From Pseudomonadota bacterium (GTDB lineage: Bacteria > Myxococcota_A > Bradymonadia > UBA4248), in contig JAFUEE010000179.1 in assembly GCA_017464085.1 (NCBI GenBank), forward strand, positions 1 through 42,336: 42,336 nucleotides of DNA, written 5' to 3'. Positions 210-25,922 of this stretch are shown piece by piece. Both the position numbers and the translations under genes were made by a program. The stretch's first letter is position 1, and each line of letters opens with the position of its first letter. A model generated the notes under the pieces. It was not told the origin of the DNA. It was given only the letters and a program-made list of their open reading frames with translations, and did no database searches.

Positions 210-371
210 TCTGTTCAACAAGCGTGGATATGGCCCCTAAATGCCATGTATTCGGCAATCGGGCATCGATAGTCTCTCCGCATAAAGCGATAGCCATTGT
301 CATGCGCGCTACTGTCTACCTTCTATTGCCTACTGTCTTGTATTTCCTCCCCACAGATGTTGAACACAGCC
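210..371. mobile_element. MITE family A copy (inverted relative to the 23465 and 25728 copies), immediately upstream of the VIT-vWA gene start
   Basis: The reverse complement of 23465..23636 aligns along the whole length at about 85% identity. It accounts for the spurious N-terminal 32 codons of track ORF 297 and the mirror ORF 23323..23547. Confidence 0.7.
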
Positions 372-392
372 TATTTTACAAGGAGGCGTGTG

Positions 393-3300
393 ATGTGCAA
401 AGAGCAATTCAATAGACGTTGGATGGCGTTGTGTGCGGCGTGTGCGGTGATTTCGCTGGGATGTGGTCCTCAGACGACTCAGGTGCCGTCAGATGAGGGA
501 TTGGGCGTATCAGGGCTGACTGATAGCGGCGACAACGCAGCTGGTATCGACAAATGTCGTCCCGAAGGCAAGATCATCACGTGCATAGAGGGGATTTGTG
601 ACCCGGCGACGGGCGATTGCGTGGAATGTCTGAGCGGAAGTGATTGCAGGACAGATGAAAAGCCTGTGTGTGCGGAGAAAAAATGCATGCCGTGCGATGC
701 ATCGCATGCCTGTGGTTCGGGCAGATGTGATGTCGTATCGGGCAAGTGCGTGGAGTGTATTTCGGATGGCGATTGCACGCTCCGGGAACGCGGCGTGTGC
801 TGGCAGGGGGTGTGTACGGCGTGCAGTCAGGAGAATTGCAAAGAGGCATGTCATGAGGTGACAGGCAGATGCGGTGCGTATGTGCCGATGCCTTGTCCTG
901 GCGGTAACTGTGGGGTGCCATCACCAATTGGGATTGGCACGATTGACCCGGGTACAATCGCGATCGGCAACAACATTCGTGTCGTGACGGTCGGTGTCCG
1001 CGATCTGAGGGCGCAGGAAAGAATGACCGAAATCGGGTCTTACAAAGTCGATGCGCGCGTCAGCGGCATGTATGCCGTCGTCTCGACAGAATTCTCGGTC
1101 TATAATCCCAACATGCGCGCGTTCGAAGGGGAGCTTGAGTTTCCGCTGCCCGATGATGCGGTGGTCTCTGGCTATGCCATCGATGTGAACGGCGTTTTGG
1201 TCGAAGGCCGCGTCGTCGAAAAGGAAAAAGCGCGCATCGCGTTTGAAAATGAAGTCAAGAAAGGCGTGGATCCCGGGCTGGTGGAACAGGTCAAGGGCAA
1301 TGCCTATCGCACGCGCATTTATCCGATTCCGGCCCAAGGAACTCGTCAAATCAGAGTGGTTTATACGACGCCGCTCACGATCGCGCCCAATGGCGATGCC
1401 GCGCTTGCGCTCCCGATGCCCAAGACGAAGCTCGCTAGACGCGATATATCGATTTCAGTCGCGAGCGGCATGCCTGCGCCCGCAGTCGGGGGCTTGGGCG
1501 ACAAACGATTTGAAGCTGCCGAAGCTGTCTGGAGAGTGGAGTCTCACGATACGGATATCACCCCGACAGAGAATGTTCTGGTCGCCATGCCGAACCTTCC
1601 CGATGTCGTGACGGCTGTCGAGAGGGGGAACGGGGAGCTGTTCTTCTCCGCGAGTGTCAAAGTGGCCGATGCGCCTGCTTCTCATGAGGTATTGCCAGCC
1701 AAATGGCGCATCATCTGGGATGCTTCGGGCAGCAGAAGCCCGGAAGATGTCGCCGCCGCGAGAAAGCTCATAGACAGCTTGCCAGATACGGCTGCTTATG
1801 AACTCCATGTGTTCCGCAATGATCTGGAACCGGTGCAGAACTTCGGTTCTCGTCTGGAACTCGCGGCTGCGCTCGATGCGCTTGCGTATGACGGCGGCAC
1901 GGATTTCGAACCGCTCAAGGCTGTTGCAGGGAGCAAATTCGATGGAATGACGCTTTTCTTTACCGATGGCATGGACACGATGACCAGCGCTTTGCCCGAG
2001 TTTGGCGCGAATTCGGTCGCACTGATTTCAGGGGCGGCGCGCGATGTCTCGTCGATGCGCCGGATATGCGGCGGCCGCACGATCAGCCTCGATATCGTGA
2101 ACGGCGCGGATGCCGTGCACCAGATCTTGGCACCTCAGCCCGTCATCTCGGGCATGAATGGCGCTGGACTCAGCGATATTCAGGGGATTGGGTTGCAGGC
2201 ATCGGGGAGGGTCACTGTCGTGGGCCGCATGAAAACGCCTGTTTCACAGGCGACAGTGCAATTATCGGATGGCCGGCAGATACCCGTTTCGTTCAACACA
2301 GCCGCCGTTCCTTCCGGGCGGACAATCGCCTCCGCCTGGGCTGCGCTCCGCATCGACGAGCTCTCTCCGCGCGCCGATGACAACCGCGAAGAACTGCTCG
2401 CGCTCGGCAGGCATTTCTCCATCGTCAGCCCGGTTTCCAGCATGATCGTCTTCGAGCGGCTCGATCAGTGGCTCCAGTACGATATCGAGCCGCCTGAATC
2501 TCTCGCGGACATGCATGCGCAATGGATGCGCCGGCATAAATCCGAGAGCGAAAAACAGTCCGAAAAGCTTCGCCTCGAACAGCAGTGGCTCAATAAACTC
2601 ACGGGCGAATGGAATGCGCGCGTCACGTGGTGGAACAATCCCGTTCCTAAATTTGTCAGGCACCAAAAACCAGATGCCCCCAGGTGGGCAGGAAGACGGC
2701 ACGGTGCTTCGGAAAGTGCGGTCATGGATAGTACCATGGTGCAGGAAGAAGCTGCAATGCCAATGCCTGCACCCGCTGCAGAGCCTGGTTATGCGCTCGG
2801 GGCAAGGGGAGCTGGTGGTGGCGGCGCTGGTTTAGGCGGTGCGCTGATGGCAAACAAAAAATCGGCCAGTGCCTCGGCCAGTGAATCACGAGAACCGCGC
2901 CACGCAGGGGCATCCATCACCGTCAAGGCCTGGGATCCGGACACGCCCTATCTCACGGCCATCAAAGACGCATATAAAATATATAAAACGCCGGAAGCTT
3001 TATATAGCGAATATATAAAACAGCGCGCAAATTACAGCGGCAGCCCGGCATTCTTCCTCGATTGCGCCGGGCTCTTCTTCAGCGAGAAGCAGAACAGGCT
3101 TGCGGTGCGCATTCTGTCGAACCTCTCGGAACTCAAGATCGACGATGTCGGCATGCTCCGCATCTATGCATGGCGTCTGCGCGAAGCAGGCGATTACGAC
3201 ACCGCGCTCATCATCCTGCGCAAGGTTGCCAAGCTCCGCGCCGATGAAGCCATCAGCTGGCGCGATCTGGCACTCACGCTCACGATGCGCGGCAAGCAGA

Positions 3301-3872
3301 ATCACAGCGCCGCCGACATTCAGGAAGCGCTCGAGCTTTTCCACAAAACCGCATTTACCGCCTGGCAGCGCAGCGACGCGATGTGGACCGCGCTCATCGC
3401 GCTCGAGGAATTCAATGAACTCGCGGCTTGGACGCGGCGCGAACAATGGCCCGGCGACGCCCCGCGCATCCCGGACATTGATGAAAAATTCGCTCAGAAC
3501 CTCGACACCGACCTGCGCATCATGATGACTTGGGATGCCGACAACACCGATATCGACATGCACGTCAAAGAACCCAGCGGCGAAGAGGTCTTTTATGCGC
3601 ATAATCGCTCGCGCACTGGCGGCCTTGTCAGCCATGACGTGACCACTGGCTATGGCCCGGAGGAATTTCTTCATAAAATTGCCCCGAAGGGCAGATATGA
3701 AGTCTTTACCAAATACTTCGCCTCACATCAGCAGTCGCTCGTCGGTCCGGCAACGATCACGCTCACGTTTTATACAAACTGGGGGCGGCCTGCGCAAAAG
3801 AGCGAATCCGTCAGCCTTCGCCTCGATAAACAGAAGGACAAGGTCATTGTCGGCTCAATCGATGTCAAATAA
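393..3872 (+). CDS. Large secreted/lipoprotein: N-terminal Cys-rich CxxC repeats, VIT (vault/inter-alpha-trypsin) domain, vWA domain (DxSxS motif 'WDASGSRS'), TPR-like helical middle, DUF2135/YfaP-like C-terminal domain
   Basis: The start is ATG 393, in frame with track ORF 297..3872 and preceded by AGGAGG at 381-386. Bases 297-392 of the track ORF lie inside a MITE copy. A signal peptide with a lipobox-like 'VISLGCGP' follows. VIT-like and vWA-like motifs are recognisable in the translation. The C-terminal 'DMHVKEPSGEEVFYAHNRSRTGG...TTGYGPEEF' looks like DUF2135. Confidence 0.75.
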   Translation: MCKEQFNRRWMALCAACAVISLGCGPQTTQVPSDEGLGVSGLTDSGDNAAGIDKCRPEGKIITCIEGICDPATGDCVECLSGSDCRTDEKPVCAEKKCMPCDASHACGSGRCDVVSGKCVECISDGDCTLRERGVCWQGVCTACSQENCKEACHEVTGRCGAYVPMPCPGGNCGVPSPIGIGTIDPGTIAIGNNIRVVTVGVRDLRAQERMTEIGSYKVDARVSGMYAVVSTEFSVYNPNMRAFEGELEFPLPDDAVVSGYAIDVNGVLVEGRVVEKEKARIAFENEVKKGVDPGLVEQVKGNAYRTRIYPIPAQGTRQIRVVYTTPLTIAPNGDAALALPMPKTKLARRDISISVASGMPAPAVGGLGDKRFEAAEAVWRVESHDTDITPTENVLVAMPNLPDVVTAVERGNGELFFSASVKVADAPASHEVLPAKWRIIWDASGSRSPEDVAAARKLIDSLPDTAAYELHVFRNDLEPVQNFGSRLELAAALDALAYDGGTDFEPLKAVAGSKFDGMTLFFTDGMDTMTSALPEFGANSVALISGAARDVSSMRRICGGRTISLDIVNGADAVHQILAPQPVISGMNGAGLSDIQGIGLQASGRVTVVGRMKTPVSQATVQLSDGRQIPVSFNTAAVPSGRTIASAWAALRIDELSPRADDNREELLALGRHFSIVSPVSSMIVFERLDQWLQYDIEPPESLADMHAQWMRRHKSESEKQSEKLRLEQQWLNKLTGEWNARVTWWNNPVPKFVRHQKPDAPRWAGRRHGASESAVMDSTMVQEEAAMPMPAPAAEPGYALGARGAGGGGAGLGGALMANKKSASASASESREPRHAGASITVKAWDPDTPYLTAIKDAYKIYKTPEALYSEYIKQRANYSGSPAFFLDCAGLFFSEKQNRLAVRILSNLSELKIDDVGMLRIYAWRLREAGDYDTALIILRKVAKLRADEAISWRDLALTLTMRGKQNHSAADIQEALELFHKTAFTAWQRSDAMWTALIALEEFNELAAWTRREQWPGDAPRIPDIDEKFAQNLDTDLRIMMTWDADNTDIDMHVKEPSGEEVFYAHNRSRTGGLVSHDVTTGYGPEEFLHKIAPKGRYEVFTKYFASHQQSLVGPATITLTFYTNWGRPAQKSESVSLRLDKQKDKVIVGSIDVK

Positions 3873-3902
3873 TATATATTTTATATTGACCTGTCGCTCC
3901 CC

Positions 3903-3936
3903 TATTTGCGGTTTATGAACTCATAAACCGCAAATA
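3903..3936. repeat. Perfect 34-bp palindrome (16-bp arms TATTTGCGGTTTATGA / TCATAAACCGCAAATA, 2-nt spacer), followed by two more GC-rich hairpins up to about 4020
   Basis: Seen directly in the sequence. It lies between the convergent VIT-vWA and NimA-like genes, has no flanking U-tract, and looks REP-like. A related 'CTATTTGC...GCAAATACG' palindrome sits at about 22583-22603. Confidence 0.6.
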
Positions 3937-4098
3937 CGGCTCGCAAGCGGCGCTATTGGCGACGATGTCGCCAATACGCGCCTTTTCGCCAGGCTATCGC
4001 GATGCGATACGCCTGGCGATGCTGTTCGCTGCGTGTCATAACGCGCAGTTTATTTGAACAATTTATAAATAATACGAATCGTAGGCATTTGATGTTTT

Positions 4099-4273
4099 AG
4101 GAAACTCTGAACAATTGCATAATCTTCAATCATGATATCGCGCAAATCCGCTCCCCTTGCCCCCTCGGGGAAAGGCCCGCTCGTCGCGTGCGCGAGGCTC
4201 GAAGCGAGCCGCTCCCCTTGCCCCATCGGGGAAAGGGGCCGGGGGGGAGGGGCCAATTAATCAGACTTTCCTT
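4099..4273. mobile_element. MITE family B, variant copy (about 175 bp): B-like terminal inverted repeats (AGGAAACTCTGAA ... TCAGACTTTCCT) enclosing a direct duplication of a 'CCGCTCCCCTTGCCCC(C/A)TCGGGGAAAGG' hairpin motif
   Basis: The ends match B copies 5350..5462 and 23642..23754 and the internal part differs. The element abuts and slightly overlaps the 3' end of the NimA-like gene. Confidence 0.45.
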
Positions 4274-4749
4274 TATGATTCGTTTACGAGTTTGCCAGTC
4301 ATGTGCTCTATGGTGAATTCGAGGCATTGAACTCTGTTGAATGCGGTTTCTAATTCTTTTTGAATATAAGCGGTATCATCTGTGAATTTGAAGGAAAGCT
4401 TTGTGCAGATTTCTTTTGAAAGCTGCATATCTTCGAGGAGATGAATCCGGCCAAATAGGACGACGCTCTTGATATTTAACGCCCATTCACCATCTTTTTG
4501 GAAGCCTTTGTCATAAACGCAAAAACAGGCTTTGTCACAGCGCTTGATGGCATCGATTTTATGTCCCTGTTTTGCCCCGTGAAAGTAGAGCTTATGCGTT
4601 GATGCATCATAATAATGGTTCAATGGAATGGCGTATGGGTAGCCGTCATCTCCGATGACAGAGAGAACGCCGCGAGGTTCGGTTTCAAGAATCTCAATAC
4701 ATTCTGCTTCCGTAATCTGCTGTTTGATTCGTCGCATTGCTCTAAACAT
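4273..4749 (-). CDS. Pyridoxamine 5'-phosphate oxidase-like FMN-binding split-barrel protein, NimA (5-nitroimidazole reductase)-like
   Basis: The 158-aa translation 'MFRAMRRIKQQITEAECIEIL...' is typical of the Nim/PNPOx-like family. Confidence 0.75.
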   Translation of the reverse strand: MFRAMRRIKQQITEAECIEILETEPRGVLSVIGDDGYPYAIPLNHYYDASTHKLYFHGAKQGHKIDAIKRCDKACFCVYDKGFQKDGEWALNIKSVVLFGRIHLLEDMQLSKEICTKLSFKFTDDTAYIQKELETAFNRVQCLEFTIEHMTGKLVNES

Positions 4750-4767
4750 AATCTGTTCCTTTAAGTT

Positions 4768-5088
4768 TTATTCCTCAGCAAACAATTTTAATCCCGTGAT
4801 GCCAATGATGATCAGAATCACGCAGATCATCTGAGGAAGAGAGGCTTTTTCATGAAAGAGAAAAATACCCAGCAGAGAGGTTCCGGCAATGCCGACGCCT
4901 GTCCAGATGGCGTATGCAGTGCCCAAGGGCATTTTTTTCATGGCAAGCGATAAAAACAAAGCACTGGCAAGATAGGCGATGACTGTAATGAGCGTCGGGA
5001 CGATTTTGGAAAACCCTTCCGAATACTTCATGCTGCATGCCCAGGTAATTTCAAACAGGCCGGCTAGCGCCAGCATCAACCACTTCAT
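4768..5088 (-). CDS. sugE: SMR-family small multidrug resistance protein, Gdx/SugE-type (guanidinium/quaternary ammonium exporter)
   Basis: The 106-aa product has 4 TM helices and the signature 'GLFEITWACSMKYSEGF...GTAYAIWTGVG', which closely resembles Gdx/SugE. Confidence 0.85.
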   Translation of the reverse strand: MKWLMLALAGLFEITWACSMKYSEGFSKIVPTLITVIAYLASALFLSLAMKKMPLGTAYAIWTGVGIAGTSLLGIFLFHEKASLPQMICVILIIIGITGLKLFAEE

Positions 5089-5134
5089 CGCTGATCCTCT
5101 CCAGTTCTCTTTATCTTCAAAGACCTAACGATAA

Positions 5135-5180
5135 AGAAAGGGTGTTGATCCTGCGACCCGGTGGCCGCAGGCACCATGTT
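5135..5180 (-). ncRNA. Structured 5' leader of sugE/gdx: nested GC-rich hairpins (GGUGC[CUGCG-GCCACCGGGU-CGCAG]GAUCAACACC) plus a second hairpin occluding the region just upstream of the SD; possible riboswitch-like element, class not assignable
   Basis: Found by reverse-complementing 5089..5200. Gdx genes are commonly controlled by guanidine riboswitches. I see partial resemblance (ACCGGGUC...AGGA) to guanidine-III but no pseudoknot and no match to the guanidine-I or -II consensus. Confidence 0.25.
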
Positions 5181-5272
5181 CTATTCGAATAGTATGTGCA
5201 GTCTTTTATATAATGTCAAACGATATTTCGAAATATATCGGCAGATAGATTGCTATTCCGCATGGTGTGGCA

Positions 5273-5570
5273 CACCCCCCCATCGCAGGCTTCGCTGGCG
5301 GCATTCGACAATGGCCAAGCCATGCACTTGAAATCAAAGCCATAGCTTTAGGAAGCTCTGAATAATTCGAAAACCTCATGGGGATGCGGGCGTCTCGCCC
5401 GCACAAAACTTATGCGTCTGAAATACTATTGTCCAAAAAACGGCAATTGTTCAGACCTTCCTTTATCATGCTCACCATTGCCTGTTGCCTGTTGCCTGTT
5501 GTTTGCACGCAAAATCACTCAATACTCCAGACCCCCCCCAATGGGGCTGAATAGTAACAATCTGAAGGTT
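5273..5570. repeat. Dispersed repeat family C copy (about 150 bp, starts 'CCCCCCCATCGCAGGCT', contains a (GCCTGTT)x3 heptamer tract) interrupted by a nested MITE-B insertion at 5350..5462
   Basis: It is homologous to 6452..6600, where the B insertion site is unoccupied (AGCTT|CATCATG there versus AGCTTT[B]TTATCATG here). Confidence 0.55.
5350..5462. mobile_element. MITE family B copy (113 bp; TIR AGGAAGCTCTGAA / TTCAGACCTTCCT; internal GCGGGCG-TCTC-GCCCGC hairpin)
   Basis: It is almost identical (1-2 mismatches) to 23642..23754 and has imperfect 13-bp terminal inverted repeats. An empty homologous site exists at about 6515, and no coding capacity is seen in the element. Confidence 0.7.
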
Positions 5571-5677
5571 TGAGTCGAGTGATACTTTTACAATTTCAAT
5601 GGTATTGAAAATTTGTTAGTGTCATCAGGCGGCAGAATTTTGCCGTATGCTAGATGAAACAAAAAAGGTGGTGTTGT

Positions 5678-6334
5678 ATGAATTATCAGGAAATCAAACA
5701 CAACGAGGAAATCAATACTTATATCAGGCAGGCGGACCTGTCGCTGTCTGCGCTTGGATATACAGAACACAGCTTTGCGCATGTGACGCTGGTCGCTGAA
5801 AAGGCTGGCTATATCCTTGAGACGCTTGGCTATCCGGCGCGCACGGTCGAGCTTGCCAAAATTGCAGGATACCTGCACGATATCGGCAATCTCGTCAACC
5901 GAGTGGATCACAGCCAGTCAGGCGGAATCATGGCTTTCAGGCTTCTGGATCATTTAAAATTTCCGCCAGAGGAGATCGGCATGATCGTGTCTGCAATTGG
6001 CAATCATGACGAAGGCACCGGGGTGCCAGTCAGCGCGCTCGCGGCCGCTCTGATTCTCTCCGATAAGAGCGATGTCCGACGCAACCGTGTGCGCAATCAG
6101 GATGTCGCGTCCTTTGATATCCATGATCGCGTGAATTATTCTGTGACCATGTCTGAATTGAAAATCAATGACGCGAGGACAATTATCACATTAAAGCTTT
6201 CGATTGATACGCATTATGGCTCTGTCATGGATTATTTTGAAATCTTTTTGCAGCGCATGATACTTTGCCGCAAAGCTGCGGAAAAACTGGGACTTCAGTT
6301 TAAATTGGTCATCAATGATCAGCAGCTCATTTGA
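5678..6334 (+). CDS. HD-domain metal-dependent phosphohydrolase (family member unassigned)
   Basis: The start is ATG 5678 after AAGGTGG. The motifs 'H..HV......AGYLHDIGN' fit the H...HD signature. Confidence 0.7.
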   Translation: MNYQEIKHNEEINTYIRQADLSLSALGYTEHSFAHVTLVAEKAGYILETLGYPARTVELAKIAGYLHDIGNLVNRVDHSQSGGIMAFRLLDHLKFPPEEIGMIVSAIGNHDEGTGVPVSALAAALILSDKSDVRRNRVRNQDVASFDIHDRVNYSVTMSELKINDARTIITLKLSIDTHYGSVMDYFEIFLQRMILCRKAAEKLGLQFKLVINDQQLI

Positions 6335-6451
6335 GTTTCTGTTCAAGGAAAAAGCTGAACAATAGGCATCAGCGCGCGAAGCGGCAAGAAACGCAGGTCT
6401 GAGAAAAAACGAAATTGAATGTCTGAACGTTACTATTCAGCCAGGAGTGAC

Positions 6452-6600
6452 ATCCCCCCCATCGCAGGCTCCGTTTGCGGCCATTCAATCCATGCTGCTG
6501 AATGCGAAGCCAGAAGCTTCATCATGATCACTGCTGCCTGTTGCCTGTTCGTAAAAGCCTTAATGGGGCGGCTGAATAAATAATGCCTGAACATTTCATT
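6452..6600. repeat. Dispersed repeat family C copy (uninterrupted)
   Basis: It is collinear with 5273..5570 minus the B element and lies upstream of the SH3b lipoprotein gene. Confidence 0.5.
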
Positions 6601-6688
6601 TGATTGTATTTCTTGATAATCCCCGGGGATGGGGGTAGAAATGGGATGGGGTATTTTTACGGGACGAGCAGGGCTTCAGGAGGTCTTG

Positions 6689-7909
6689 ATGAAACGATTT
6701 CGAATATTTGAAAGCGCCGTGCTAGTGACGGCAATTTTCATGGGATTTTCTCTGAATTCGTGCACTGACGAGGAAGACTGGATGCTTCTAGACGATGAGT
6801 TTGGAGAGGTTCAGTCCGCGCTTTCGAGTGCCACGATTACCAAAGGTGCTGTCTCTGTGCGAACAGGTCCTGGGGTTTGGTATGATCGCATCGGGGGGTT
6901 GCGCTATGGGAAAACTGTGAGCGTTGTCAAAGAACAGGCTGGATGGCTCAAGATCAAGTATGGGGATTCGGAAGGCTGGATTTATCGTCCGGATACCGAT
7001 CTTGCATCCTCAAGCGCTGCCGCAAGCTGCTCCGCAGATGTTGCCAATTTCATCCGCGACAATTATCCCGATGGCTACAATATTATATTTGCTTACAACG
7101 GCTCTGATCAGGCTGCGGAATTTCATAGCCAGGCAAAGCAGTTTTCATCTGAATATCATACACTTAATGTATCCAGTGGCGAGCTCAAAAAAGATATATA
7201 TAGAAAAGTTAAGAACTATTCCGAGTTCAAGAATGGCATTCTTGAGACAGGCCGTGCCGTTGTCAAATGTCTGGAAGATAACCCGCGCGCCGGTTATGAT
7301 GACAGCAAGTGCTCGCAGATCAAGAACCTGACCGTGATGACGCACGGCTTCACAACCGGTCTGAATTTTGGCGGCGGCTATTTCAATAACACCGACATTC
7401 CGGATTTTGGCTCGACGGTTTATGGATATCTTAACAACAAGTCGCTTCGCGTGCAGCTTTATGCATGCAGCGCGGCGCGAAATAAAGATACTAAAGAAAA
7501 CTGGTATGAGCGCTATACGGGCGATATCATCAAGGAACAGGATCCGTTCAAGGGCGGCAAAGGCTCGTTTGCGCAGCTTTTGTCTGAAGAAATGGGGCCG
7601 GATGCCACCGTCTTTGGGCACACGACTGCCGGTCATCTTTCCGGAAACTACGCCGCTCGCTGCTATGGCAAGATGGCCAACGGCGCGGTTCACGGCAAAC
7701 ACATGTTTGATGTCTATTTCCCACAGTCGTTCGTTGCTGAACAGGCAAAACGTATCGGCAAAAGCGAAGATGCGACCCGCACCTCGATGTATTCATACTA
7801 TCGATCGAATGGAGCATATCCGGGCAACAACAGCGGGCGAGATACTTTTATGGATCCAGAAGGCAAAGGCAAGAAAATGCGCGATGCCTGGCTGAGCAAA
7901 AATCCATAA
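6689..7909 (+). CDS. Lipoprotein with SH3b (bacterial SH3) domain and an uncharacterized C-terminal domain (about 280 aa; contains 'LYACSAAR' and 'GHTTAGH' motifs, possible hydrolase)
   Basis: The start is ATG 6689 after CAGGAGG. The signal peptide is 'MKRFRIFESAVLVTAIFMGFSLNSC' with a lipobox. The SH3b-like segment is 'GAVSVRTGPGVWYDRIGGLRYGKTVSVVKEQAGWLKIKYGDSEGWIY'. Confidence 0.7.
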   Translation: MKRFRIFESAVLVTAIFMGFSLNSCTDEEDWMLLDDEFGEVQSALSSATITKGAVSVRTGPGVWYDRIGGLRYGKTVSVVKEQAGWLKIKYGDSEGWIYRPDTDLASSSAAASCSADVANFIRDNYPDGYNIIFAYNGSDQAAEFHSQAKQFSSEYHTLNVSSGELKKDIYRKVKNYSEFKNGILETGRAVVKCLEDNPRAGYDDSKCSQIKNLTVMTHGFTTGLNFGGGYFNNTDIPDFGSTVYGYLNNKSLRVQLYACSAARNKDTKENWYERYTGDIIKEQDPFKGGKGSFAQLLSEEMGPDATVFGHTTAGHLSGNYAARCYGKMANGAVHGKHMFDVYFPQSFVAEQAKRIGKSEDATRTSMYSYYRSNGAYPGNNSGRDTFMDPEGKGKKMRDAWLSKNP

Positions 7910-7967
7910 TCCTGATGGCTCGAATTGCTGAAAGCTTGGAAATTAATCTGACTCCGGGAGGTTCACT

Positions 7968-11240: not shown

Positions 11241-11257
11241 GCTGAGTTTCTGAGTCG

Positions 11258-11288: not shown

Positions 11289-11412
11289 TGCGGATAGTTG
11301 CCTTCCGGGATGTCGTTGAGCAGTTAATCAGATATCTGGTTTGAAAAAGCGCGAACTAAACGGTATAACGGCAGAAGATGGTGTTTTCGCCAACGACTTT
11401 AAGGAGATTAGT

Positions 11413-13893: not shown

Positions 13894-13925
13894 TTGGCAG
13901 CTGGCCTGCTTTATCGTGGGGTGAA

Positions 13926-13958
13926 GCGAGCCGTCCGCAAGGGCGGCTCGCTTTTTTA
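13926..13958 (+). terminator. Rho-independent terminator after paralog 1
   Basis: GCGAGCCGTCC-gcaa-GGGCGGCTCGC followed by TTTTTT. Confidence 0.85.
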
Positions 13959-14063
13959 TTGGGGCAGAAAATTGCCGGGCGTATCGCGCAGCGATAGCAC
14001 GGCAAAGGCGGCCGTATGCGCCTTTGCGCATAGGCTGCCGCAGACAGGATGTCCTGATGAGGC

Positions 14064-14106
14064 AAAAAAAAATCGAAATCGGAAAAAACATCTGCTAAGT
14101 AATAGG
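14064..14106 (+). promoter_or_regulatory. Conserved A-rich upstream module (A9 tract ...ATCGAAATCGGAAAAAACATCTGCTAAGTAATAG) about 150 bp upstream of paralog 2; homologous copy 16941..16988 upstream of paralog 3
   Basis: The two intergenic regions share this module and neighbouring REP-like palindromes, so the duplication appears to have included the regulatory DNA. The A9/A8 homopolymer could slip. Confidence 0.4.
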
Positions 14107-14213
14107 CGTTTGCGATTTTGGACTGAATGTCCGGCTGGTTTTTAGACGTAGAAGCCCGTTCAACGTGTTGATGCGTTTTGTTGTGATGCCTATCCGTGGG
14201 CAGGAGATTTGAT

Positions 14214-16739: not shown

Positions 16740-16768
16740 TCGGCATGAGGCGCATGCCGATGGATGCG

Positions 16769-16796
16769 AGGCCGCCCTTCGGGGCGGCTTTTTTTG
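16769..16796 (+). terminator. Rho-independent terminator after paralog 2 (GGCCGCCC-ttcg-GGGCGGC + T7), preceded by a CGGCATG/CATGCCG hairpin
   Basis: Seen directly in the sequence. Confidence 0.9.
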
Positions 16797-16940
16797 ATTA
16801 CTTTTTTGGTGGCATGAGACGGCGCTTTTGAGCGTGCTGCACTGCTTGAGCGAGAAAATAGTGGCAGCCGTGCGTATCGGCGCAGCCGATAGCGCGGCTG
16901 GGCGGCAGTATGCGCATGGCGCATAGGCCGCCCGACAATT

Positions 16941-16988
16941 AAAAAGCAAAAAAAATCGAAAAGGGTAAAAACATCTGCTAGATATAGT
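16941..16988 (+). promoter_or_regulatory. Second copy of the conserved A-rich upstream module, about 130 bp upstream of paralog 3
   Basis: See 14064..14106. Confidence 0.4.
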
Positions 16989-17070
16989 CGGATATGCTAG
17001 AGGCTTGTCTGTTGTCAGCACGGCATATTTTTGACCAGTTTGAAGAAAGTCCTTTTTCAGGAGAACGGAT

Positions 17071-19530
17071 ATGAAAAAAATGCATCTCAAGATGCTTGTC
17101 TTGTTACTTGGAAGCGCGCTTCTTGTGTCTGCTTGTGACAGCAATTCGGAAAATCAGGAAGAGAAGCCGGGACCCGGAGTTGGGACTTGTGAAGGGGATG
17201 ATTGCGAGGATCCTGAGGTGTGCACTCCTGCGAATTGCCCCAATGGCACATGCATGTATGGCAAGTGTGTGGAAGCGTGTACGGGAAGTGACTGCGAAAA
17301 GCCGGAAACATGCACGTCTGCGAACTGCCCGGATGGGGAATGCGTGGACGGCGTATGCAGAGAGATTTGCCCGAACGGCCGCAATGAGGATGGCAGCTGC
17401 ATCGTCGTTTCGAAATGTTCCGCGCCTGATGAAGACAAGGACGGGATCTCGGATGAACATGAGGGACGCGCGTCCAATCGTGACACGGATGGCGACACGG
17501 TGCCGGACTATCTGGATGATGACAGCGACGGCGACACGATTCCCGACAGCGTGGAAGCAAACAATGGCGGATGTTCAGGAACCGCGCCCGATGATGCGGA
17601 CTATGACCTGATACCGAATTACCTCGACACGGACAGCGACAACAACGGCATTCTCGACAGCGCGGAAGCCGGTGCGGATCCGGCGAAGCCCGTGGACAGC
17701 GATGGCGATACGGTGCCGGATTATCTGGATGACGACAACGACGGCGACGGCCTGTCGGATGATCTGGAAATCTATGGGGAAGCGGCATTTGGCCTGGATG
17801 TTCCTGAAGGAAAGATCTCTGCGGACTGTGACGGCGACGGCGCGCATGATGATGCAGGGAGCCCGGAACATCCGCGCGACTGCGACAAGGATGGCGTGCC
17901 CGATTATATGTCTGTTGACAGCGATGGCGACACGATCCCGGATCAGCATGAAGGGCAGCACCGCGCGAGCCAGTATTTGGCGCGGTATTCCAAGGACAGC
18001 GATGAGAATGGCATTCCGGACAGCGTGGAATGTCACGGTACGCCCGATGAGAACGGGCTTATGACGGTCTGTGTGGACACGGATGGCGACACGATCCCGG
18101 ATTATCGCTCGCTCGACAATGACGGGGATCTGCTCTCTGATATGTACGAAAAAGAGATCGGCACAGACCCGGACAACGCGGATACGGATGGTGACGGCGC
18201 GAACGATATGGTCGAGATCGGTGCGGGGACGGATCCGCTTGATCCGAATGTCAATCCGCAGAGCAGGGGCGATTTTGTGTTCACCGTGCCTTATGGCAAG
18301 AAATCCACGCCCGACAAGCAGTCGCTGAGCTTTGCGACATCTGTGCAGAAGGTCGATATCTATTTTGCAGTCGATACGAGCATGTCGATGCAGGATGAGA
18401 TCAAGACGCTGCAGGAATATCTGCCCGATATGCTCGAGGAGATGCGGTGCAAAGAGCTCGGCAAGGACTGCGAGAGCAACAGCGACTGTCTGGAACTGAA
18501 TGAGGGCAAGGCGCTGTGCAGCGAGCAGAAGCGATGCATCGAGGATCCGCATACGGTCACGGCTGTGAATGCAGAGGGGGAGGAAGAAATCGTCGGCTGC
18601 TTCACGGATATGTGGACGGGATTTGGCGTGTGGGGCAATCTGAACTCGTTCAAGAACAAGCAGTCCATTAACGAGGACACGAAGGCGACGACGGATGCGC
18701 TCGGCGCAGTTGTTTTTAATGCCGAGGGTGACGATGAGAATACGATACAGCCTCCGGCATGCGTGTCTGAGGGCGTGACGTTCTGCACGAACACTGAGAC
18801 GATCGCATGCTATAAGGGCAAGGAAAAGCGCAAGGGGTGTGTCGGCTATCGCAAGGACGCGATCAAGATTCTCGTGCAGGCAGGCGATGAGCAGAACAAA
18901 AATGACGGTCTCGGCTTCAATGTGTCTGATGCCGGAAAAGTCGGGGAGTCGCTGCGCAAGAACAGCATCCGGTATCTCGGCCTGTATGGCAGCAAGGATG
19001 CTTATGACCATGGCATGAAGCAGCTCGCGTGCTATGCCGGCTCCTGTCCGGACAGCGAGGATTGCGCGGCGACCTATCATGACTGCACACGCATGACCGC
19101 AGCGGAAAACAAGGCGCTTTTCCTCGCGGCGATCAATAACGCGGACATCAAGGAAAAGACTGTCGAGAACGTGCGCAAGCTTGCGAACAAGATGAAGCTC
19201 AAGATCACCTCGGACGTGGAGGATATCGATAAGGATGCGTCGAAACTCGTCAAGGCATTGAAGGTCAATATCACGGATGAGGAAGTTCAGGGCAAGCCGT
19301 GTTCGAAAGTCGAAGGCATTTCCGGAGAGCCGTTCGAGTCTATCGCGCATCTGTCACCGGGCCTGAGCGTGTGCTTTGATGTGATTCCGGAAGATTTCCA
19401 GAAGGTGTTTCCGCCGACGGACAAGCCGCAGCTCAAGCGGGCCAGAATCAAGGTTATGGGCGACGGCTCGACATTGAACACGGGGGTCGCGTACTTCCTG
19501 ATCCCGCCTGGAACGCAGGAAGTCAACTGA
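17071..19530 (+). CDS. TSP3-repeat / vWA-domain lipoprotein, paralog 3
   Basis: The start is ATG 17071 after CAGGAG. The signal is 'MKKMHLKMLVLLLGSALLVSAC', and it has the vWA metal-binding motif 'DTSMSM'. An A7 tract lies in codons 2-3. Confidence 0.85.
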   Translation: MKKMHLKMLVLLLGSALLVSACDSNSENQEEKPGPGVGTCEGDDCEDPEVCTPANCPNGTCMYGKCVEACTGSDCEKPETCTSANCPDGECVDGVCREICPNGRNEDGSCIVVSKCSAPDEDKDGISDEHEGRASNRDTDGDTVPDYLDDDSDGDTIPDSVEANNGGCSGTAPDDADYDLIPNYLDTDSDNNGILDSAEAGADPAKPVDSDGDTVPDYLDDDNDGDGLSDDLEIYGEAAFGLDVPEGKISADCDGDGAHDDAGSPEHPRDCDKDGVPDYMSVDSDGDTIPDQHEGQHRASQYLARYSKDSDENGIPDSVECHGTPDENGLMTVCVDTDGDTIPDYRSLDNDGDLLSDMYEKEIGTDPDNADTDGDGANDMVEIGAGTDPLDPNVNPQSRGDFVFTVPYGKKSTPDKQSLSFATSVQKVDIYFAVDTSMSMQDEIKTLQEYLPDMLEEMRCKELGKDCESNSDCLELNEGKALCSEQKRCIEDPHTVTAVNAEGEEEIVGCFTDMWTGFGVWGNLNSFKNKQSINEDTKATTDALGAVVFNAEGDDENTIQPPACVSEGVTFCTNTETIACYKGKEKRKGCVGYRKDAIKILVQAGDEQNKNDGLGFNVSDAGKVGESLRKNSIRYLGLYGSKDAYDHGMKQLACYAGSCPDSEDCAATYHDCTRMTAAENKALFLAAINNADIKEKTVENVRKLANKMKLKITSDVEDIDKDASKLVKALKVNITDEEVQGKPCSKVEGISGEPFESIAHLSPGLSVCFDVIPEDFQKVFPPTDKPQLKRARIKVMGDGSTLNTGVAYFLIPPGTQEVN

Positions 19531-19547
19531 TCTGAGTGAATAAGTTT

Positions 19548-19577
19548 ACGGGCGCATTTGAATGCGCCCGTTTTCTG
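19548..19577 (+). terminator. Rho-independent terminator after paralog 3 (ACGGGCGCA-tttgaa-TGCGCCCGT + TTTCT)
   Basis: The 9-bp stem is perfect. Coordinates are +/-1. Confidence 0.8.
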
Positions 19578-19639
19578 TATCTGATTGAGTGGCTGCTTGG
19601 ATTGATGCGCGCAGTGCTTGGGGCTGATATGGAATCAAT

Positions 19640-19800
19640 CATAATGTATGGCTGTTCAGAAATTGCATGAAGATTGCAATTTAGAATATTATATATTATT
19701 TGTGGAATTTGTATTTATATAATTATGTATAAATATGGTGATAATATATATAAATTTTCAGTCATTTGAATGGCAATGATTTTTCGGCAGCAGTGGGAAG
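19640..19800. promoter_or_regulatory. Markedly AT-rich island (about 160 bp, visually <25% GC versus a genome around 57%) with the inverted repeat AAATTGCA-N7-TGCAATTT; upstream of paralog 4
   Basis: Compositional contrast is seen directly. Multiple TATAAT-like hexamers are present. Confidence 0.5.
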
Positions 19801-20030
19801 ACACTGATGGGATTCCGGGAGACAATAGCCAGTATGTGCGAGAGGCACATCTGCGAGGCGATTTGTACGGATGGGGCACAGGGCGCATGGTGAAGCTGAG
19901 CGAGATGCCGACGCATGCTCTGTGTTGCCCACAAAAAAATGCGCAGTGATTGCAAATATCTGTTAAGCTATGAAAGTGTTGTGTGTTTGAACAAGCCCTT
20001 TGTGGTGATGTTGTGTTGGAGTGAGTGATC

Positions 20031-22502
20031 ATGGCGATACAGAAGCGTTTGGGGATGATCTTGTGCATGTTTTCCGGAATTTGGGCGTTATCTGGATGCG
20101 GCGGGGAGAAGCCGCATTCGGATAACGATCCGTGCGCGGATGGGGCTTGCCAGGAGGCGCATTGCAATGCCGAGACATGCCCGGACGGGGCGTGTCTCGA
20201 TGGGGAATGCGTCAGAACGTGCGCAGGCGCGTCATGTGATGCGAAGTGCAGCGCCGAGACATGCCCGGACGGGGAGTGCGTGAATGACGAATGCCTCGAG
20301 AAGTGCCTGAATGGCAGAGATGAAACAGGCAGATGCATGGAGGATGCGCCGAAGTGCAAGGCCCCCGATGCGGACCGCGACGGTATTTCGGATGCGGACG
20401 AAGGGCGTTCGGAAAATCGCGATACGGATGGCGATGGAGAGCCAGATTATCTGGACGATGACAGTGACGGGGATACGATACCGGACAGCGTGGAAGCGCG
20501 CAACGGCGGCTGTTCGGATAACAGGCCGGCGGATACGGATTATGACGGGGAGCCTGATTATCTGGATGACGACAGCGACGGCAACGGTATTCCGGACCGC
20601 ATTGAGGCGGGGGCGGATCCAGCGCATCCGATCGACACGGACGGCGACGGGGAGCCCGATGTTGTAGATGATGACAACGATGGGGACGGCATCTCGGATG
20701 TCATTGAAATCTATGGCGAAGTCGCGACAGGCCTTCAGGTGCCTGCGGGCAAGATCTCTGCGGACTGCGACGGGGATGGCGAACCGGATGACGAAGGGAC
20801 TGCGGAAGCGCCGCGCGACTGCGACGCGAATGGGATGCCCGACTATCTCGATCCGGACAGCGACGGGGATACGCTGCCCGATGCGTATGAGCGCTTCGAA
20901 CGCACCGGGCAGTGGTTTGCGCGCTATTCATCCGACAGTGACGGAAATGGGGAGCCGGATCGCGAGGAATGTGGCGGATCGCCGGATGAGAATGGCTATT
21001 TGTCAGCCTGTGTCGACACGGACGGTGACGGCAAGCCGGATTATCTCGATCTCGACGATGACGGCGATTCGCTTCCCGATATCTATGAGAGGGCGCACGG
21101 GCTTAATCCCAAACATCAGGATACGGACGGGGATGGCGCGGATGATCTTATTGAAATCGGTGCAGGCACGGACCCGACAGATCCGAACGTGAATCCGCAG
21201 AGCGAAGGGAATTTCGTGTTCAAAGTGCCGTACCGCGGGAAATCGTCGCCGGAAAAGCAGACCCTGAGCTTCGAGACTGCCATTCAGCTGATAGACCTGT
21301 TCTTTATCGTGGACAACACGGGGTCGATGGGGGAGGAGACGCAGGCATTTGCCGAATCGCTCCCTGCGATACTCCAGACGCTTCAGTGCACGGACAAGGG
21401 CAAGAAGTGCGAGGATAACAATGACTGTGCGGAATTCGAGCATTCGATCTGTTCTGAATCCGGCAAATGCATCCAGTCGCCAGCGTACGGCGATGGCTGT
21501 TTTGACAAGATGCAGACGGGCATCGGGTTTTATTCGAAGATGGATTCATTCTGGGTCGCCAGTGCTGTCGGGGACGATGTGAAAAAGACTGTTTCGGCGC
21601 TCAAGGCACGTTTCAGCTCGATCACGACGAAAGACGAGAGCTATGACGGGTTCTGCTCGACAGGTAATTATGAGCCGCCTTATCAGATGCCGATTTGCGC
21701 GCTTCTGGGCACGGATACGTTCAATGGCAAGCAGTACTGCCGAGCGGAGGGGAATGCGACGTGCAAGGTCTCCCCGACTGCGGACAAGACATGCGGCGTG
21801 TACAGCACGTGCAAGATCGGGTGTTCTGGCGACAGCACTCGCTTGGGGTGCGCCGGCTTCCGGAATGAGGCGATACGCCTGATCATTGAGGTGTTCGACG
21901 AGGAAGAATGCGCGCTGAACAAGGGGGATGATGTCAAGGCGCGCTGCGATTCGTTCCGGGCGTCGATCGGCTCGGTGCTCAAGAAATATACGACGCGATA
22001 TATCGGCCTGTGGGGGACATATAACAACGTCGCGATGGAAGATACGGCAAAGGCGATCAGCCTGGCGGTCAACGGCACAGACCAGTATGCGTTCGAGGCG
22101 CAGGATGCGAATGTCGTGGCCCAGACGATCGATGGCGTCCGCAAAATCGCCAAGAATATGCCGATTGATGTGACCACAAGCGTCGAGGATATCGACGAGA
22201 ACGCATCAAAGCTCGTGAAGGCGCTCAGAGTGAACGTCACGGATGAAGAAGTTCAGGGGCGTGCGTGCACGAAAGTCCCGAACATCAGCGGTGAGGATTT
22301 TCAGTCGATCGGGGCGCTCCACCCGGGCACGAGCGTCTGTTATGACGTGATCCCGCTCGATTATCAGGATGTGATCAGGCCGACGTCGGAGCCGCAGGTG
22401 GTCCGCGCAAAGATCAAGGTCATGGGGGACGGCTCGACGCTGAACTCGGGCATTGCATATTTTCTGATTCCGCCGGTGATCGGGGATGAGCAGGTGAACT
22501 GA
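20031..22502 (+). CDS. TSP3-repeat / vWA-domain lipoprotein, paralog 4 (most divergent: 'DGEPDY' repeat variant; vWA metal-binding motif 'DNTGSM'; longer Cys-rich post-vWA region)
   Basis: The start is ATG 20031; the track ORF starts at an in-frame GTG at 20025. The signal is 'MAIQKRLGMILCMFSGIWALSGC'. Confidence 0.8.
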   Translation: MAIQKRLGMILCMFSGIWALSGCGGEKPHSDNDPCADGACQEAHCNAETCPDGACLDGECVRTCAGASCDAKCSAETCPDGECVNDECLEKCLNGRDETGRCMEDAPKCKAPDADRDGISDADEGRSENRDTDGDGEPDYLDDDSDGDTIPDSVEARNGGCSDNRPADTDYDGEPDYLDDDSDGNGIPDRIEAGADPAHPIDTDGDGEPDVVDDDNDGDGISDVIEIYGEVATGLQVPAGKISADCDGDGEPDDEGTAEAPRDCDANGMPDYLDPDSDGDTLPDAYERFERTGQWFARYSSDSDGNGEPDREECGGSPDENGYLSACVDTDGDGKPDYLDLDDDGDSLPDIYERAHGLNPKHQDTDGDGADDLIEIGAGTDPTDPNVNPQSEGNFVFKVPYRGKSSPEKQTLSFETAIQLIDLFFIVDNTGSMGEETQAFAESLPAILQTLQCTDKGKKCEDNNDCAEFEHSICSESGKCIQSPAYGDGCFDKMQTGIGFYSKMDSFWVASAVGDDVKKTVSALKARFSSITTKDESYDGFCSTGNYEPPYQMPICALLGTDTFNGKQYCRAEGNATCKVSPTADKTCGVYSTCKIGCSGDSTRLGCAGFRNEAIRLIIEVFDEEECALNKGDDVKARCDSFRASIGSVLKKYTTRYIGLWGTYNNVAMEDTAKAISLAVNGTDQYAFEAQDANVVAQTIDGVRKIAKNMPIDVTTSVEDIDENASKLVKALRVNVTDEEVQGRACTKVPNISGEDFQSIGALHPGTSVCYDVIPLDYQDVIRPTSEPQVVRAKIKVMGDGSTLNSGIAYFLIPPVIGDEQVN

Positions 22503-23350: not shown

Positions 23351-23464
23351 CGTTCCGCGCAAGGTGAAAGTTTAGTTTTGGGGAGCTTGTCGGCAGTGAT
23401 GACTGTGCATGATTTCATTTTGCGGACGAAAATTGAGTAATTTGACGGAAACCATGTTTTACTT

Positions 23465-23636
23465 AAGGCTGTGTTCAACGTCCGTGGATATGAAATACAA
23501 GGCAGCAGGCAATAGAATGTAGGCAGTAGTGCGCATGATAAAGGCAAAAGCTTTTATATGGAGAGGCTATTGATGCTTGATTGCCGATAATACATGGCAT
23601 TTGGGAGCCATATCCACGCCTGTTGAACAGAGCCTT
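23465..23636. mobile_element. MITE family A copy (about 170 bp; TIR TAAGGCTGTGTTCAAC ... GTTGAACAGAGCCTTA)
   Basis: It is homologous to 210..371 in inverted orientation and to 25728..25922. It sits between the NfeD-like and flotillin genes. Confidence 0.7.
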
Positions 23637-23641
23637 ACTTA

Positions 23642-23754
23642 AGGAAGCTCTGAATAATTCGAAAACCTCCTGGGGATGCGGGCGTCTCGCCCGCACAAAA
23701 CTTATGCGTCTGAAATACTATTGTCCAAAAAACGGCAATTGTTCAGACCTTCCT
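23642..23754. mobile_element. MITE family B copy (113 bp), immediately adjacent to the MITE-A copy
   Basis: It is nearly identical to 5350..5462. Confidence 0.7.
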
Positions 23755-24052
23755 TAATTATTATTTATAATGCAGGTCTTTTATCGTCATGGAGTGATGG
23801 GGAGATTCTGGCGGATTTGCCACTTGATGCAGCTGTGATAGGTAAGGAAAGTTTAACTTCAAGTGTGTTTGGCAAGTGAAATGGCGTTGCAACTGCAGGC
23901 GTGTTAGGGTAGAAATAGATACGTGAGCTTGGTGCGGTCTTAAAAAAAGATAACGCGCCGTATGAAATAGGCGCGTTTGGGGAGCGTATTTTCGCCTGGC
24001 GAAAATAGCTCCCTGTACGCAAAATCATCACCCACACGAGGAGGGAAAAGCC

Positions 24053-25723
24053 GTGGATGACATGATACTTTGGATTGTTGTTGCTGTTTGTGTGATCATT
24101 GTGATCAGTTTGATTGCGGGGTTCATGAAGCGTTATCATCGCTGCCCGTCGGATAAGGTGCTTGTCATCTACGGACGTCTTGGCAAGGATGCCAATGGAG
24201 AGCAGAAGTCGGCCAAATGTATCCACGGCGGTGCGGCATTTGTGTGGCCGTTCCTTCAGGATTGCCAGTTCCTCGATTTGACGCCGTTTTCGATCAACAT
24301 CGACCTGAGAGGCGCGCTTTCGAAGCAGAACATCCGTGTGGACGTGCCCGCGAGCTTCACGGTCGGCATCTCGACAGAGCCGAAAGTCATGCAGAATGCG
24401 GCAGAGCGCCTCCTTGGCCTTTCGCTCCACAATGTCGTGAGCCTTGCGAATGAAATCATCCTCGGCCAGCTTCGTCTGATCATCGCGACGATGGATATTG
24501 AAGAGCTGAACACGCAGCGCGACAAATTCATGAGCGAAGTTCAGCAGTGCGTGGAATCGGAGCTCAAGAAGATCGGCCTGAAGCTGATCAACGCCAACCT
24601 CACGGATATCCGCGACCAGTCCGGTTATATCGAAGCTCTCGGCAAAGAGGCGGAAGCGAAGGCGCTGAACGAAGCGAAGCGCAACGTTGCTGAGCGCAAC
24701 CGTGAAGGTAACACGGGTGAAAAAGACGAGAAGGCTCGCGAAGCGATCGAACTGGCGCAGAAAGATCGTGAGCAGCGTGCCGGTGTTGCGAAGGAAATGG
24801 CGGCGGCCATTGCGGCGGAAAAAGAAGCAGAGACGAAACAGCGCTCTGACATCGCGAATGCGGATGCGGCAGCCATCGCGGCAGAAAAAGCGGCTGAGAC
24901 GAAGAAGAGAGCTGACATCGCGAATGCGGATGCGGCGGCCATCGCGGCAGAAAAAGCGGCTGAGACGAAGAAGAGAACGGATATCGCGAATGCGAACGCT
25001 GAAGCTGTGGCTTCCGAAAAAGCGGCAGAAAAAGAACAGCGTGCGGCAGTGGCCAATGCCAATGCCGAGGCCATCGCGGCAGAAAACCAGGCTGCTGCAG
25101 CCATCGCGCTCTCTGAAGCAAGCCGTCGTGAGGCCGAAGCTGAAGCCCGCGCCCGTGCATACAGCGCCGAAAAGGTCAAGAATGCCCGCGCTTTGAGCGA
25201 AGCGTATGCAGCAGAAGAAAAAGCAGAAATCGCCCGTGCCGAACGTCAGAAAGCGACGATGCAGGCCGATGTCCTCGTTCAGGCCGATATTGAAAAACGC
25301 CGTATCGAGATTGCTGCTGAGGCTGAAGCTGAAGCCATCCGCCGCAAGGCAAAAGGTCAGGCAGACGCTATGCTGGTCAAGATGCAGGCGGAAGCTGACG
25401 GTATCAAGGCTCAGCTCGCGAAACGCGCTGAAGGCTTCATGATGCTCGTCAAAGCCGCCAATGGCGATCCGGATGCCGCTGTCCGCTTGATGATGACTGA
25501 TAAGGTCGAAGATATCGTCAAGGCTCAGGTCGAGGCCATCAAGGGCGTGAACATCGACAAGATCACGGTTTGGGATTCGATGAGCGGTCAGGACGGTGCG
25601 TCCACGACTTCAAACTTCCTCAGCTCCATGATCAAATCAGTTCCCCCGATGAAAGATGTTTACAACATGGTCGGGCTGGATGTTCCCGTGATTAAAGACA
25701 AGGCCGAAACAAAAGAAGCCTGA
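24053..25723 (+). CDS. Flotillin-like SPFH/band-7 protein (YqiK/FloT-like) with a long Ala/Glu/Lys-rich repeat region
   Basis: The probable GTG start at 24053 has GAGGAGGG 7 nt upstream; ATG 24062 is the alternative. An N-terminal TM helix is followed by an SPFH core and 21-aa EA-rich repeats. Confidence 0.85.
   Translation: MDDMILWIVVAVCVIIVISLIAGFMKRYHRCPSDKVLVIYGRLGKDANGEQKSAKCIHGGAAFVWPFLQDCQFLDLTPFSINIDLRGALSKQNIRVDVPASFTVGISTEPKVMQNAAERLLGLSLHNVVSLANEIILGQLRLIIATMDIEELNTQRDKFMSEVQQCVESELKKIGLKLINANLTDIRDQSGYIEALGKEAEAKALNEAKRNVAERNREGNTGEKDEKAREAIELAQKDREQRAGVAKEMAAAIAAEKEAETKQRSDIANADAAAIAAEKAAETKKRADIANADAAAIAAEKAAETKKRTDIANANAEAVASEKAAEKEQRAAVANANAEAIAAENQAAAAIALSEASRREAEAEARARAYSAEKVKNARALSEAYAAEEKAEIARAERQKATMQADVLVQADIEKRRIEIAAEAEAEAIRRKAKGQADAMLVKMQAEADGIKAQLAKRAEGFMMLVKAANGDPDAAVRLMMTDKVEDIVKAQVEAIKGVNIDKITVWDSMSGQDGASTTSNFLSSMIKSVPPMKDVYNMVGLDVPVIKDKAETKEA
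24848..24979 (+). repeat. Near-perfect in-frame 63-bp tandem repeat x 2 (DIANADAAAIAAEKAAETKKR), within a wider degenerate repeat tract at about 24797..25088 of the flotillin gene
   Basis: The nucleotide-level direct repeat is visible. Confidence 0.8.
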
Positions 25724-25727
25724 TAAA

Positions 25728-25922
25728 AAGGCTCTGTTGAACGACTGTGGATATAAAAGGCAGTAGGCAGTAGGCAATAGGCAGTAGTAAGCATGATAAA
25801 AGTTCTAGTTTTATGCGGAGAGATTGTCATTGCTCACTTGCTGCTTGCCGATTGCCGATAAAAGGCTTGAGGATGATGTTCGACGACTCTCATTGCCATA
25901 TCCATGCTGGTTGAACAAAGCC
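25728..25922. mobile_element. MITE family A copy (about 195 bp; TIR AAGGCTCTGTTGAAC ... GTTGAACAAAGCC) inserted between the flotillin stop codon and its terminator
   Basis: It is homologous to the other two A copies. A further TIR-like fragment GGCTTTGTTCAA sits at 25959-25970 and another at about 26053-26064. Confidence 0.65.

Follow-up and report, generated by a model that had tools for sequence, protein, structure and literature searches.

Two families of bacterial insertion sequences (ISs), IS6/IS26 and ISL3, offer the closest comparisons for the short repeat described here as family A, which is present in three copies in a 42,336-nucleotide stretch of DNA (the window), contig JAFUEE010000179.1 of a Pseudomonadota bacterium (assembly GCA_017464085.1). 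IS6-family elements produce 8-bp direct repeats, and their terminal repeats, which are short and related, carry a GG tip and the motifs cTGTt and caaa; they transpose by replicative formation of cointegrates that are resolved by host recombination (PMC7986276). Two miniature inverted-repeat transposable elements (MITEs) of this family, of 227 and 336 bp, are held in ISfinder (PMC7986276). ISL3 elements make 8-bp duplications that are often AT-rich, such as TTTTTAAA and CAAAAAAG for ISPst2, and their 24-nt inverted repeats can begin with GGCTCTT, as in ISArsp7 (PMC6305408). Archaeal MITEs of 165-179 bp with duplications of 7-8 bp have been described with ISL3 and IS1595 partners (PMC3852290).

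Family A is very probably a MITE family, as a preliminary description of the window had proposed. The copies are dispersed in both orientations, they have inverted ends and 8-bp target duplications, they contain no open reading frame (ORF) and show no RNA covariation, and the site of one of them is empty in relatives. They would be non-coding transposons that insert into AT-rich intergenic DNA with duplication of 8 bp of the target, and a DDE transposase whose gene lies at another place in the genome would move them in trans. The best explanation overall, which we hold to be quite probable, is such a MITE family moved in trans, with an IS6/IS26-type enzyme as the likeliest driver. As far as the searched collections and the literature show, the family is newly described, and one or more of its insertions are recent. 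All copies in the window are intergenic, and they lie as follows.

207-371, minus strand: copy c1 of family A, 165 bp
23467-23634, plus strand: copy c2 of family A, 168 bp
25730-25922, plus strand: copy c3 of family A, 193 bp, including a 31-nt internal insertion

The concern raised with the first proposal, that the three segments might fail to align, did not materialize: all three align as real homologous copies, with boundaries 0-3 nt from the coordinates first given when the ends are taken as GGCT...AGCC. Copies c1 and c2 are 84% identical over 167 nt (E 1.5e-41), and c3 is 67-71% identical to c1 and c2 (E about 1e-15). Copies of the family range from 163 to 193 bp in size and, as had been claimed, have no coding capacity, with stops in all six frames and no ORF common to the copies. 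A short ORF following a conserved GGAGAG...ATG inside the element was considered and rejected, as it is not kept between copies. An alignment of six copies has a mean column identity of 71%, with the ends and one internal block the most conserved parts.

The terminal inverted repeat of family A is about 26 nt long and has the form GGCTSTGTTSAAC-N3-4-GTGGATATG. In c2 the inverted ends, of about 26 nt each, are GGCTGTGTTCAACGTCCGTGGATATG and CATATCCACGCCTGTTGAACAGAGCC; the arms are 82% complementary over 34 nt when the duplicated 8-bp flanks are included, and about 22/26 by hand count when the flanks are excluded. One tip of c1, at the 3' end, is mutated, with TA in place of GG. The terminal repeat had initially been given as TAAGGCTGTGTTCAAC. 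Inverted ends are indeed present, but this start is 3 nt too early, since the TAA belongs to the target duplication of c2 (TTACTTAA), and the true start is GGCT. We searched the window for the 12-nt end core GGCTNTGTTSAA, tolerating at most one mismatch, and found 8 occurrences, all of them exact, against 1.11 expected from shuffles (0 of 100 shuffles reached 8). Seven are element ends, and the eighth, GGCTGTGTTGAA at 2292-2303 on the minus strand, lies within a VIT/DUF2135 gene (the VIT gene) and is probably a chance match.

Target duplications flank two of the window copies.

23459-23466, plus strand: left 8-bp target duplication of c2, TTACTTAA
23635-23642, plus strand: right 8-bp target duplication of c2, TTACTTAA, matching at 8/8 positions
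25722-25729, plus strand: left target duplication of c3, GATAAAAA, overlapping the flotillin stop codon TGA (25721-25723)
25923-25930, plus strand: right target duplication of c3, AATAAAAA, matching at 7/8 positions

The comparison of filled and empty sites that had been suggested for identifying these duplications confirms a length of 8 bp and finds the c3 site empty in three related contigs, L013, L014 and L015, whose flotillin is 96% identical to that of the window and whose DNA identity is 87-91%. The empty site in these contigs reads ...GAAGCCT GATAAAAA AGCCGCTGGAAACAGCGGC..., with a single target copy, and the filled site in the window reads ...GAAGCCT GATAAAAA (193-bp c3) AATAAAAA AGCCGCTGG.... 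The two flanks agree exactly and the 8-bp target is present twice, the hallmark of an insertion made by a transposase. Copy c3 is missing at the same site in L013, L014, L015 and a further contig, L018, which is 94-98% identical to the window and has c2 together with the family B element that adjoins it (described below). At L018:5005-5035, the orthologue of window 25715-25935, the sequence is GATAAAAA-AGTCT-GATAAAAG, in which 5 nt separate two copies of the target and the element is missing. This arrangement resembles a footprint of excision or deletion and may be one; alternatively, it could be an independent small duplication.

Other sites are less clear, and several of them weigh against a MITE family. 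Copy c1 has no recognizable target duplication (1/8), the duplications of the copies in L011 and L006 and of a possible fourth window copy (c4, described below) match at 4-5/8 positions, about chance for AT-rich DNA, and a clean empty site of family A was found at one locus only, that of c3. The flanks of the copy in L005, TATTATTA and TATTTATA, form a duplication at 6/8 positions. For c2, the intergenic flanks in L012-L015 are too diverged for a precise comparison; for c1, the nearest VIT homologues (L021-L023) are not syntenic upstream, and no syntenic relative was found. The flanks of all copies except c1 (62%) are 88-100% A+T, in a genome of 54% G+C.

These same figures bear on whether family A is instead a dispersed palindromic repeat of the ERIC or REP type, one that spreads by recombination or duplication and whose target duplications are accidents of AT-rich flanks. 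Three observations would suit such a repeat: in four of the seven distinct copies (five of eight if c4 is counted) the duplications match no better than AT-rich DNA would by chance, the search for a transposase partner found none, and the genome has several other palindromic repeat families. This reading would leave unexplained the perfect 8/8 duplication of c2, the exact insertion of c3 with target doubling relative to three related assemblies, and the match of the family A tips to a known transposase-binding end, and we consider it quite improbable.

Correia elements of Neisseria and the ERIC/IRU repeats of enterobacteria are, like family A, intergenic imperfect palindromes, with lengths of 100-160 bp. 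They are often co-transcribed with neighboring genes, and in the mRNA they can fold into long hairpins. The target duplicated by Correia elements is TA, and their ends are unrelated to those of family A; ERIC has no defined duplication; to our knowledge, neither has sequence similarity to family A.

Copies of family A were also found outside the window. A profile of the family recovers 7 distinct full copies in 5 loci (the window and four others), in both orientations and in unrelated contexts. Scans for the exact pattern GCCATATCCAYGCNNGTTGAACA, in hindsight too strict, yielded one true non-autonomous copy in JGI metagenomes (L005:267-430) and, in GTDB species genomes, a single chance match within a coding region (L004) and no true copy. 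A scan of viral contigs with an end pattern gave 0 matches. A blastn search of plasmids with c2 gave no match. When a protein collection was searched with the translated reverse strand of the element, two spurious ORFs led to L006-L010, which are one locus recovered from five samples, and to L011, a contig of metagenome-assembled genome (MAG) GCA_054274495.1 at NCBI that carries a full copy. Another contig of the same MAG, L025, is 98.5% identical to window 1938-9120, which makes that of L011 the fourth full copy for this species. The copy at L018:2636-2803 is the orthologue of c2. The 3' tip of the L006 copy is mutated to AG.

Two observations concern the surroundings of family A sequences in these contigs. 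In L006, a tandem array of units of about 60 nt (...AAATGAAATGACCTGTCTGCCCGGGGAATCGTGCTTT...) at 1-250 immediately precedes the family A copy. At L012:6157-6190 (also at L013:1419 and L016:26) there is a solo end of family A, GGCTGTGTTCAACGAGTGTGGATATG, intergenic between two of the paralogous genes (see below) in a related strain, and the corresponding region of the window, 19531-20024, is without it.

We found no copies of family A or B in the flanking DNA, up to 10 kb on each side, of more distant relatives whose flotillin is 69-77% identical, and the distribution of family A thus appears narrow. The window, a bacterial contig from a metagenome (ENA ERZ27256836, k141_594403, 42.3 kb), has a G+C content of 54.5% and carries ordinary chromosomal genes, among them those for release factor 3, alanyl-tRNA synthetase, glutamate dehydrogenase, flotillin and the VIT/DUF2135 protein. 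The nearest database proteins are labelled 'MAG: Proteobacteria bacterium', and related contigs come from the metagenome sets XIEF21 and LIUQ22, whose names suggest a ruminant gut origin. Assemblies from other samples break at or beside the repeats: L002 ends at window position 26121, L026 ends at 5343, and L020 spans 87-3997.

The positions of c1 and c3 relative to genes are as had been described, c1 directly 5' of the VIT gene and c3 in the flotillin 3' untranslated region (UTR). Copy c1 ends 21 nt upstream of the VIT start codon (ATG at 393), just before the ribosome-binding site AAGGAGG at 380-386. Copy c3 lies between the flotillin stop codon and the terminator, six bases past the stop and in the terminator A-tract. 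Promoter scans inside family A returned weak consensus matches only, and relatives have the same genes without family A elements. The large effect on local gene expression asserted in the preliminary description finds no support in these observations; it is possible that the long hairpin added to the VIT 5' leader and the flotillin 3' UTR could affect these genes. The best promoter-like match of the region, a consensus match only, is at 23742-23771 on the plus strand (TTCAGA-18-TATAAT, 10/12), some 280 nt before flotillin. The right end of a family B element supplies the -35 of this match, and flanking DNA the -10.

Such placement raises the alternative that the copies are structured regulatory RNAs, or regulatory modules bound by proteins, which selection keeps beside particular genes. 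Consistent with it, c1 and c3 lie in a likely transcribed leader and trailer, the internal block shows the same degree of conservation as the ends and is common to a separate family (family C, below), and the long hairpin into which the element folds greatly exceeds shuffles in stability (-68 kcal/mol, z = -6.3). Any inverted-repeat element would fold in this way. Across the copies, 1 of 50 predicted pairs is compensatory, the majority of changes disrupt pairing, and the covariation term, at +1.87, is unfavorable; nothing here points to an RNA structure under selection. Rfam gave 0 matches at the gathering score and, at E <= 1, just generic matches on the neighboring terminator. Position and orientation relative to genes vary, and orthologous genes in relatives are without the element. 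A motif present once per operon, which the preliminary description had named as the competing possibility, does not fit either, as copies occur on the 5' or the 3' side of genes as well as next to other repeats, and orthologous loci lack them. We regard this alternative as largely refuted and extremely unlikely.

Which enzyme moves family A can be approached through its ends. We took the ends of IS6100 from plasmid NC_003227.1, where an 880-bp element with the annotation IS6100 has GGCTCTGTTGCAAA at each end, and compared them with the family A ends (GGCTCTGTTCAAC, GGCTCTGTTGAAC and GGCTGTGTTCAAC). The two have 9-10 leading bases in common and agree at 9-11 of the first 14 positions, and a gapped 28-nt alignment of family A ends to IS6100 reached a score that none of 5000 shuffles attained. 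All intact family A tips have GG. CTGTT is found at positions 5-9 in four of six 3' ends, with TTGTT in c3 and L005, and the 5' ends vary, with GTGTT in c1, c2 and L011. At the position of the caaa motif family A has CAAC or GAAC, one base nearer the tip. Tips that match the IS6 motif and IS6100, together with the 8-bp duplications that IS6 makes, would make an IS6/IS26-type enzyme the likeliest driver. That the driver is an IS6-family transposase is, on the strength of these tips and duplications, an evenly balanced proposition.

Family A thus has in common with IS6/IS26 elements (IS6100, IS26, IS257) the GG tips, CTGTT, a CAA motif and 8-bp duplications in AT-rich sites. It differs from them in that it has no transposase gene, a repeat of about 26 nt, CAAC rather than GCAAA and no partner IS seen, and in that its host is an uncultured bacterium, presumably of the gut, labelled 'Proteobacteria bacterium'. 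Several points speak against an IS6-type driver. The inverted repeat of about 26 nt, which extends through GTGGATATG, compares with the 14-20 nt typical of IS6, and the caaa motif is imperfect, being CAAC in family A. Replicative transposition of the IS6 type does not predict the footprint-like duplication in L018. When the approximately 205 kb of DNA examined were searched by tblastn with the transposase of IS6100, no transposase of the IS6 type came up. Likewise, no autonomous IS with the same ends was found in that DNA, and plasmids and viral contigs held nothing similar. A truncated ORF of 30 aa, with which the window begins on its left side, was considered as the N-terminus of an IS6 transposase and rejected, because its full-length relatives are 120-220-aa proteins with a helix-turn-helix and a coiled coil and without a Pfam match.

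If an IS6-like enzyme is the driver, simple insertions with duplications would arise through cointegrates resolved by recombination between two copies of about 165 bp. Intramolecular events would leave copies without matching flanks, of which c1 may be one.

A MITE derived from or moved by a transposase of the ISL3 family, or of another family with 8-bp duplications and GG tips, is the main alternative for the driver, and one we consider rather unlikely. Family A fits an ISL3-type end (an inverted repeat of about 15-39 nt, a GG tip, often GGCTCTT, and an 8-bp AT-rich duplication) in length and duplication, and its repeat of about 26 nt is closer to ISL3 lengths than to the 14-20 nt of IS6. ISL3 elements and MITEs (ISArsp7, ISPst2 and the archaeal 179-bp MITE with its partner ISMac21) resemble it in their AT-rich duplications of 7-8 bp and repeats of about 22-24 nt. 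Their ends can begin with GGCTCT, but beyond these first six bases they do not match family A: the ends of ISArsp7 (GGCTCTTCGCGG...) and ISPst2 (GGGTATCC...) agree with it at 6-7 of 14 positions, compared with 9-11 for IS6100, a comparison that is thin since it uses three published end sequences from two elements only. The motif found across the IS6 family, GG..cTGTt..caa, is present in family A and also argues for IS6 over ISL3.

To the right of c3 are two further features that involve family A ends.

25926-25955, no strand assigned: hairpin of the bidirectional intrinsic terminator of flotillin, which is the AT-rich target of c3 and lies at the center of a 61-nt palindrome
25960-26061, plus strand: facing pair of exact end cores spanning 102 bp, GGCTTTGTTCAA at 25960-25971 (plus strand) and TTGAACAGAGCC at 26050-26061 (minus strand)

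The palindrome, at 25911-25971, is perfect over its 61 nt and runs from the 3' tip of c3 and the target copy through the terminator into a mirrored version of these. The mirror arm is missing from L018, which has a different sequence, TTATGAGCAATG, at that position. From this difference, template switching from the left arm, rather than a second insertion, may have produced the right arm. The end sequences here had been described as degenerate solo fragments; they are present, but they are neither degenerate nor solo, being exact cores that face each other. The segment 25960-26061 is either a short decayed copy of 102 bp (c4) or a palindrome-copied tip plus a solo end. L013-L015 contain a family A subterminal fragment, GCTCAACGACTGTGGGTATGG, after a duplicated terminator, which is identical at 14/15 positions to the 5' subterminal region of c3, indicating that more than one family A event has taken place at this spot.

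Two further MITE families, B and C, lie beside or nested with family A.

5351-5461 and 23643-23753, with a copy at L018:2800-2930: family B, 111 bp, copies 95% identical
About 5247-5557 and 6429-6590, with a copy at L018:3035-3205: family C, about 165-200 bp, with ends of about TTACTATTCAGCC
5460-5501, minus strand: A-like internal block of heptamer repeats and GCATGATAAAGG inside a family C element, not a copy of family A

Family B has the ends GGAAGCTCTGAATAATT and GGAAGGTCTGAACAATT, which match a verified IS5 end (GGAAGGTGCGAACAAGT) at 14/17 positions by hand count, and 4-bp duplications, TTTA and TTAA. One of its copies abuts the right target copy of c2, the last 4 nt of which (TTAA) double as its own left target duplication; the other is nested inside a family C element. 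Family C has a clean filled and empty pair between contigs that are 94-98% identical: L018 carries a 171-bp insertion with the 9-bp duplication CTTCAAGTG, and the window has a single copy of this sequence at the empty site, 23857-23865.

Families A and C have in common an internal block of about 45-55 nt, AAAGCYATWG(C)CTTTATCATGCKCACYAYTGCCT followed by CTGCCTR heptamers, which within family A is conserved as strongly as the ends. Their ends are unrelated and their duplications are of 8 and 9 bp, so the two are presumably moved by different transposases. The block might be a functional cargo (a promoter, a protein-binding array or a small RNA) captured by two MITE chassis and scattered beside genes, which we think improbable; alternatively, it could be a mere recombination scar.

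The lineage is generally repeat-rich. At 11341-22502 on the plus strand, four tandem paralogous genes encode proteins of 819-850 aa and have 68-81% DNA identity in repeats of about 2.8 kb. They are full of Cys-rich and Asp-rich units of 36-39 nt (GACAGCGACGGCGAC...), which read as repeats of a putative calcium-binding type; a Pfam scan of the first paralogue (11341-13893), the sole one scanned, gave no match. G+C-rich palindromic REP-like repeats are found at 4140-4250 and 26086-26150 of the window, L011:4300-4370 and L013:7060-7330, and a 17-nt tandem array (GCCATCATTTACCCGGG) is found in L013-L015. At the edge of the contig, the truncated ORF (window 2-91, minus strand), with its relatives P0243, P0246 and P0247 (120-220 aa, helix-turn-helix and coiled coil), is possibly an IS OrfA-like gene. 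L020, from another assembly, begins at window position 87, near the end of the window contig.

MITEs are common, and the finding is chiefly of annotation value. Family A explains assembly breaks at these points in an uncultured, presumably ruminant-gut lineage, and two differences in MITE presence or absence between contigs that are 94-98% identical are markers of recent strain divergence. The wider interest lies in the IS6-like end, as IS6/IS26 elements are thought to move via cointegrates and IS6 MITEs are rare (PMC7986276). If IS6-driven, a family that shows clean simple insertions would lend itself naturally to testing how IS6 enzymes make them.

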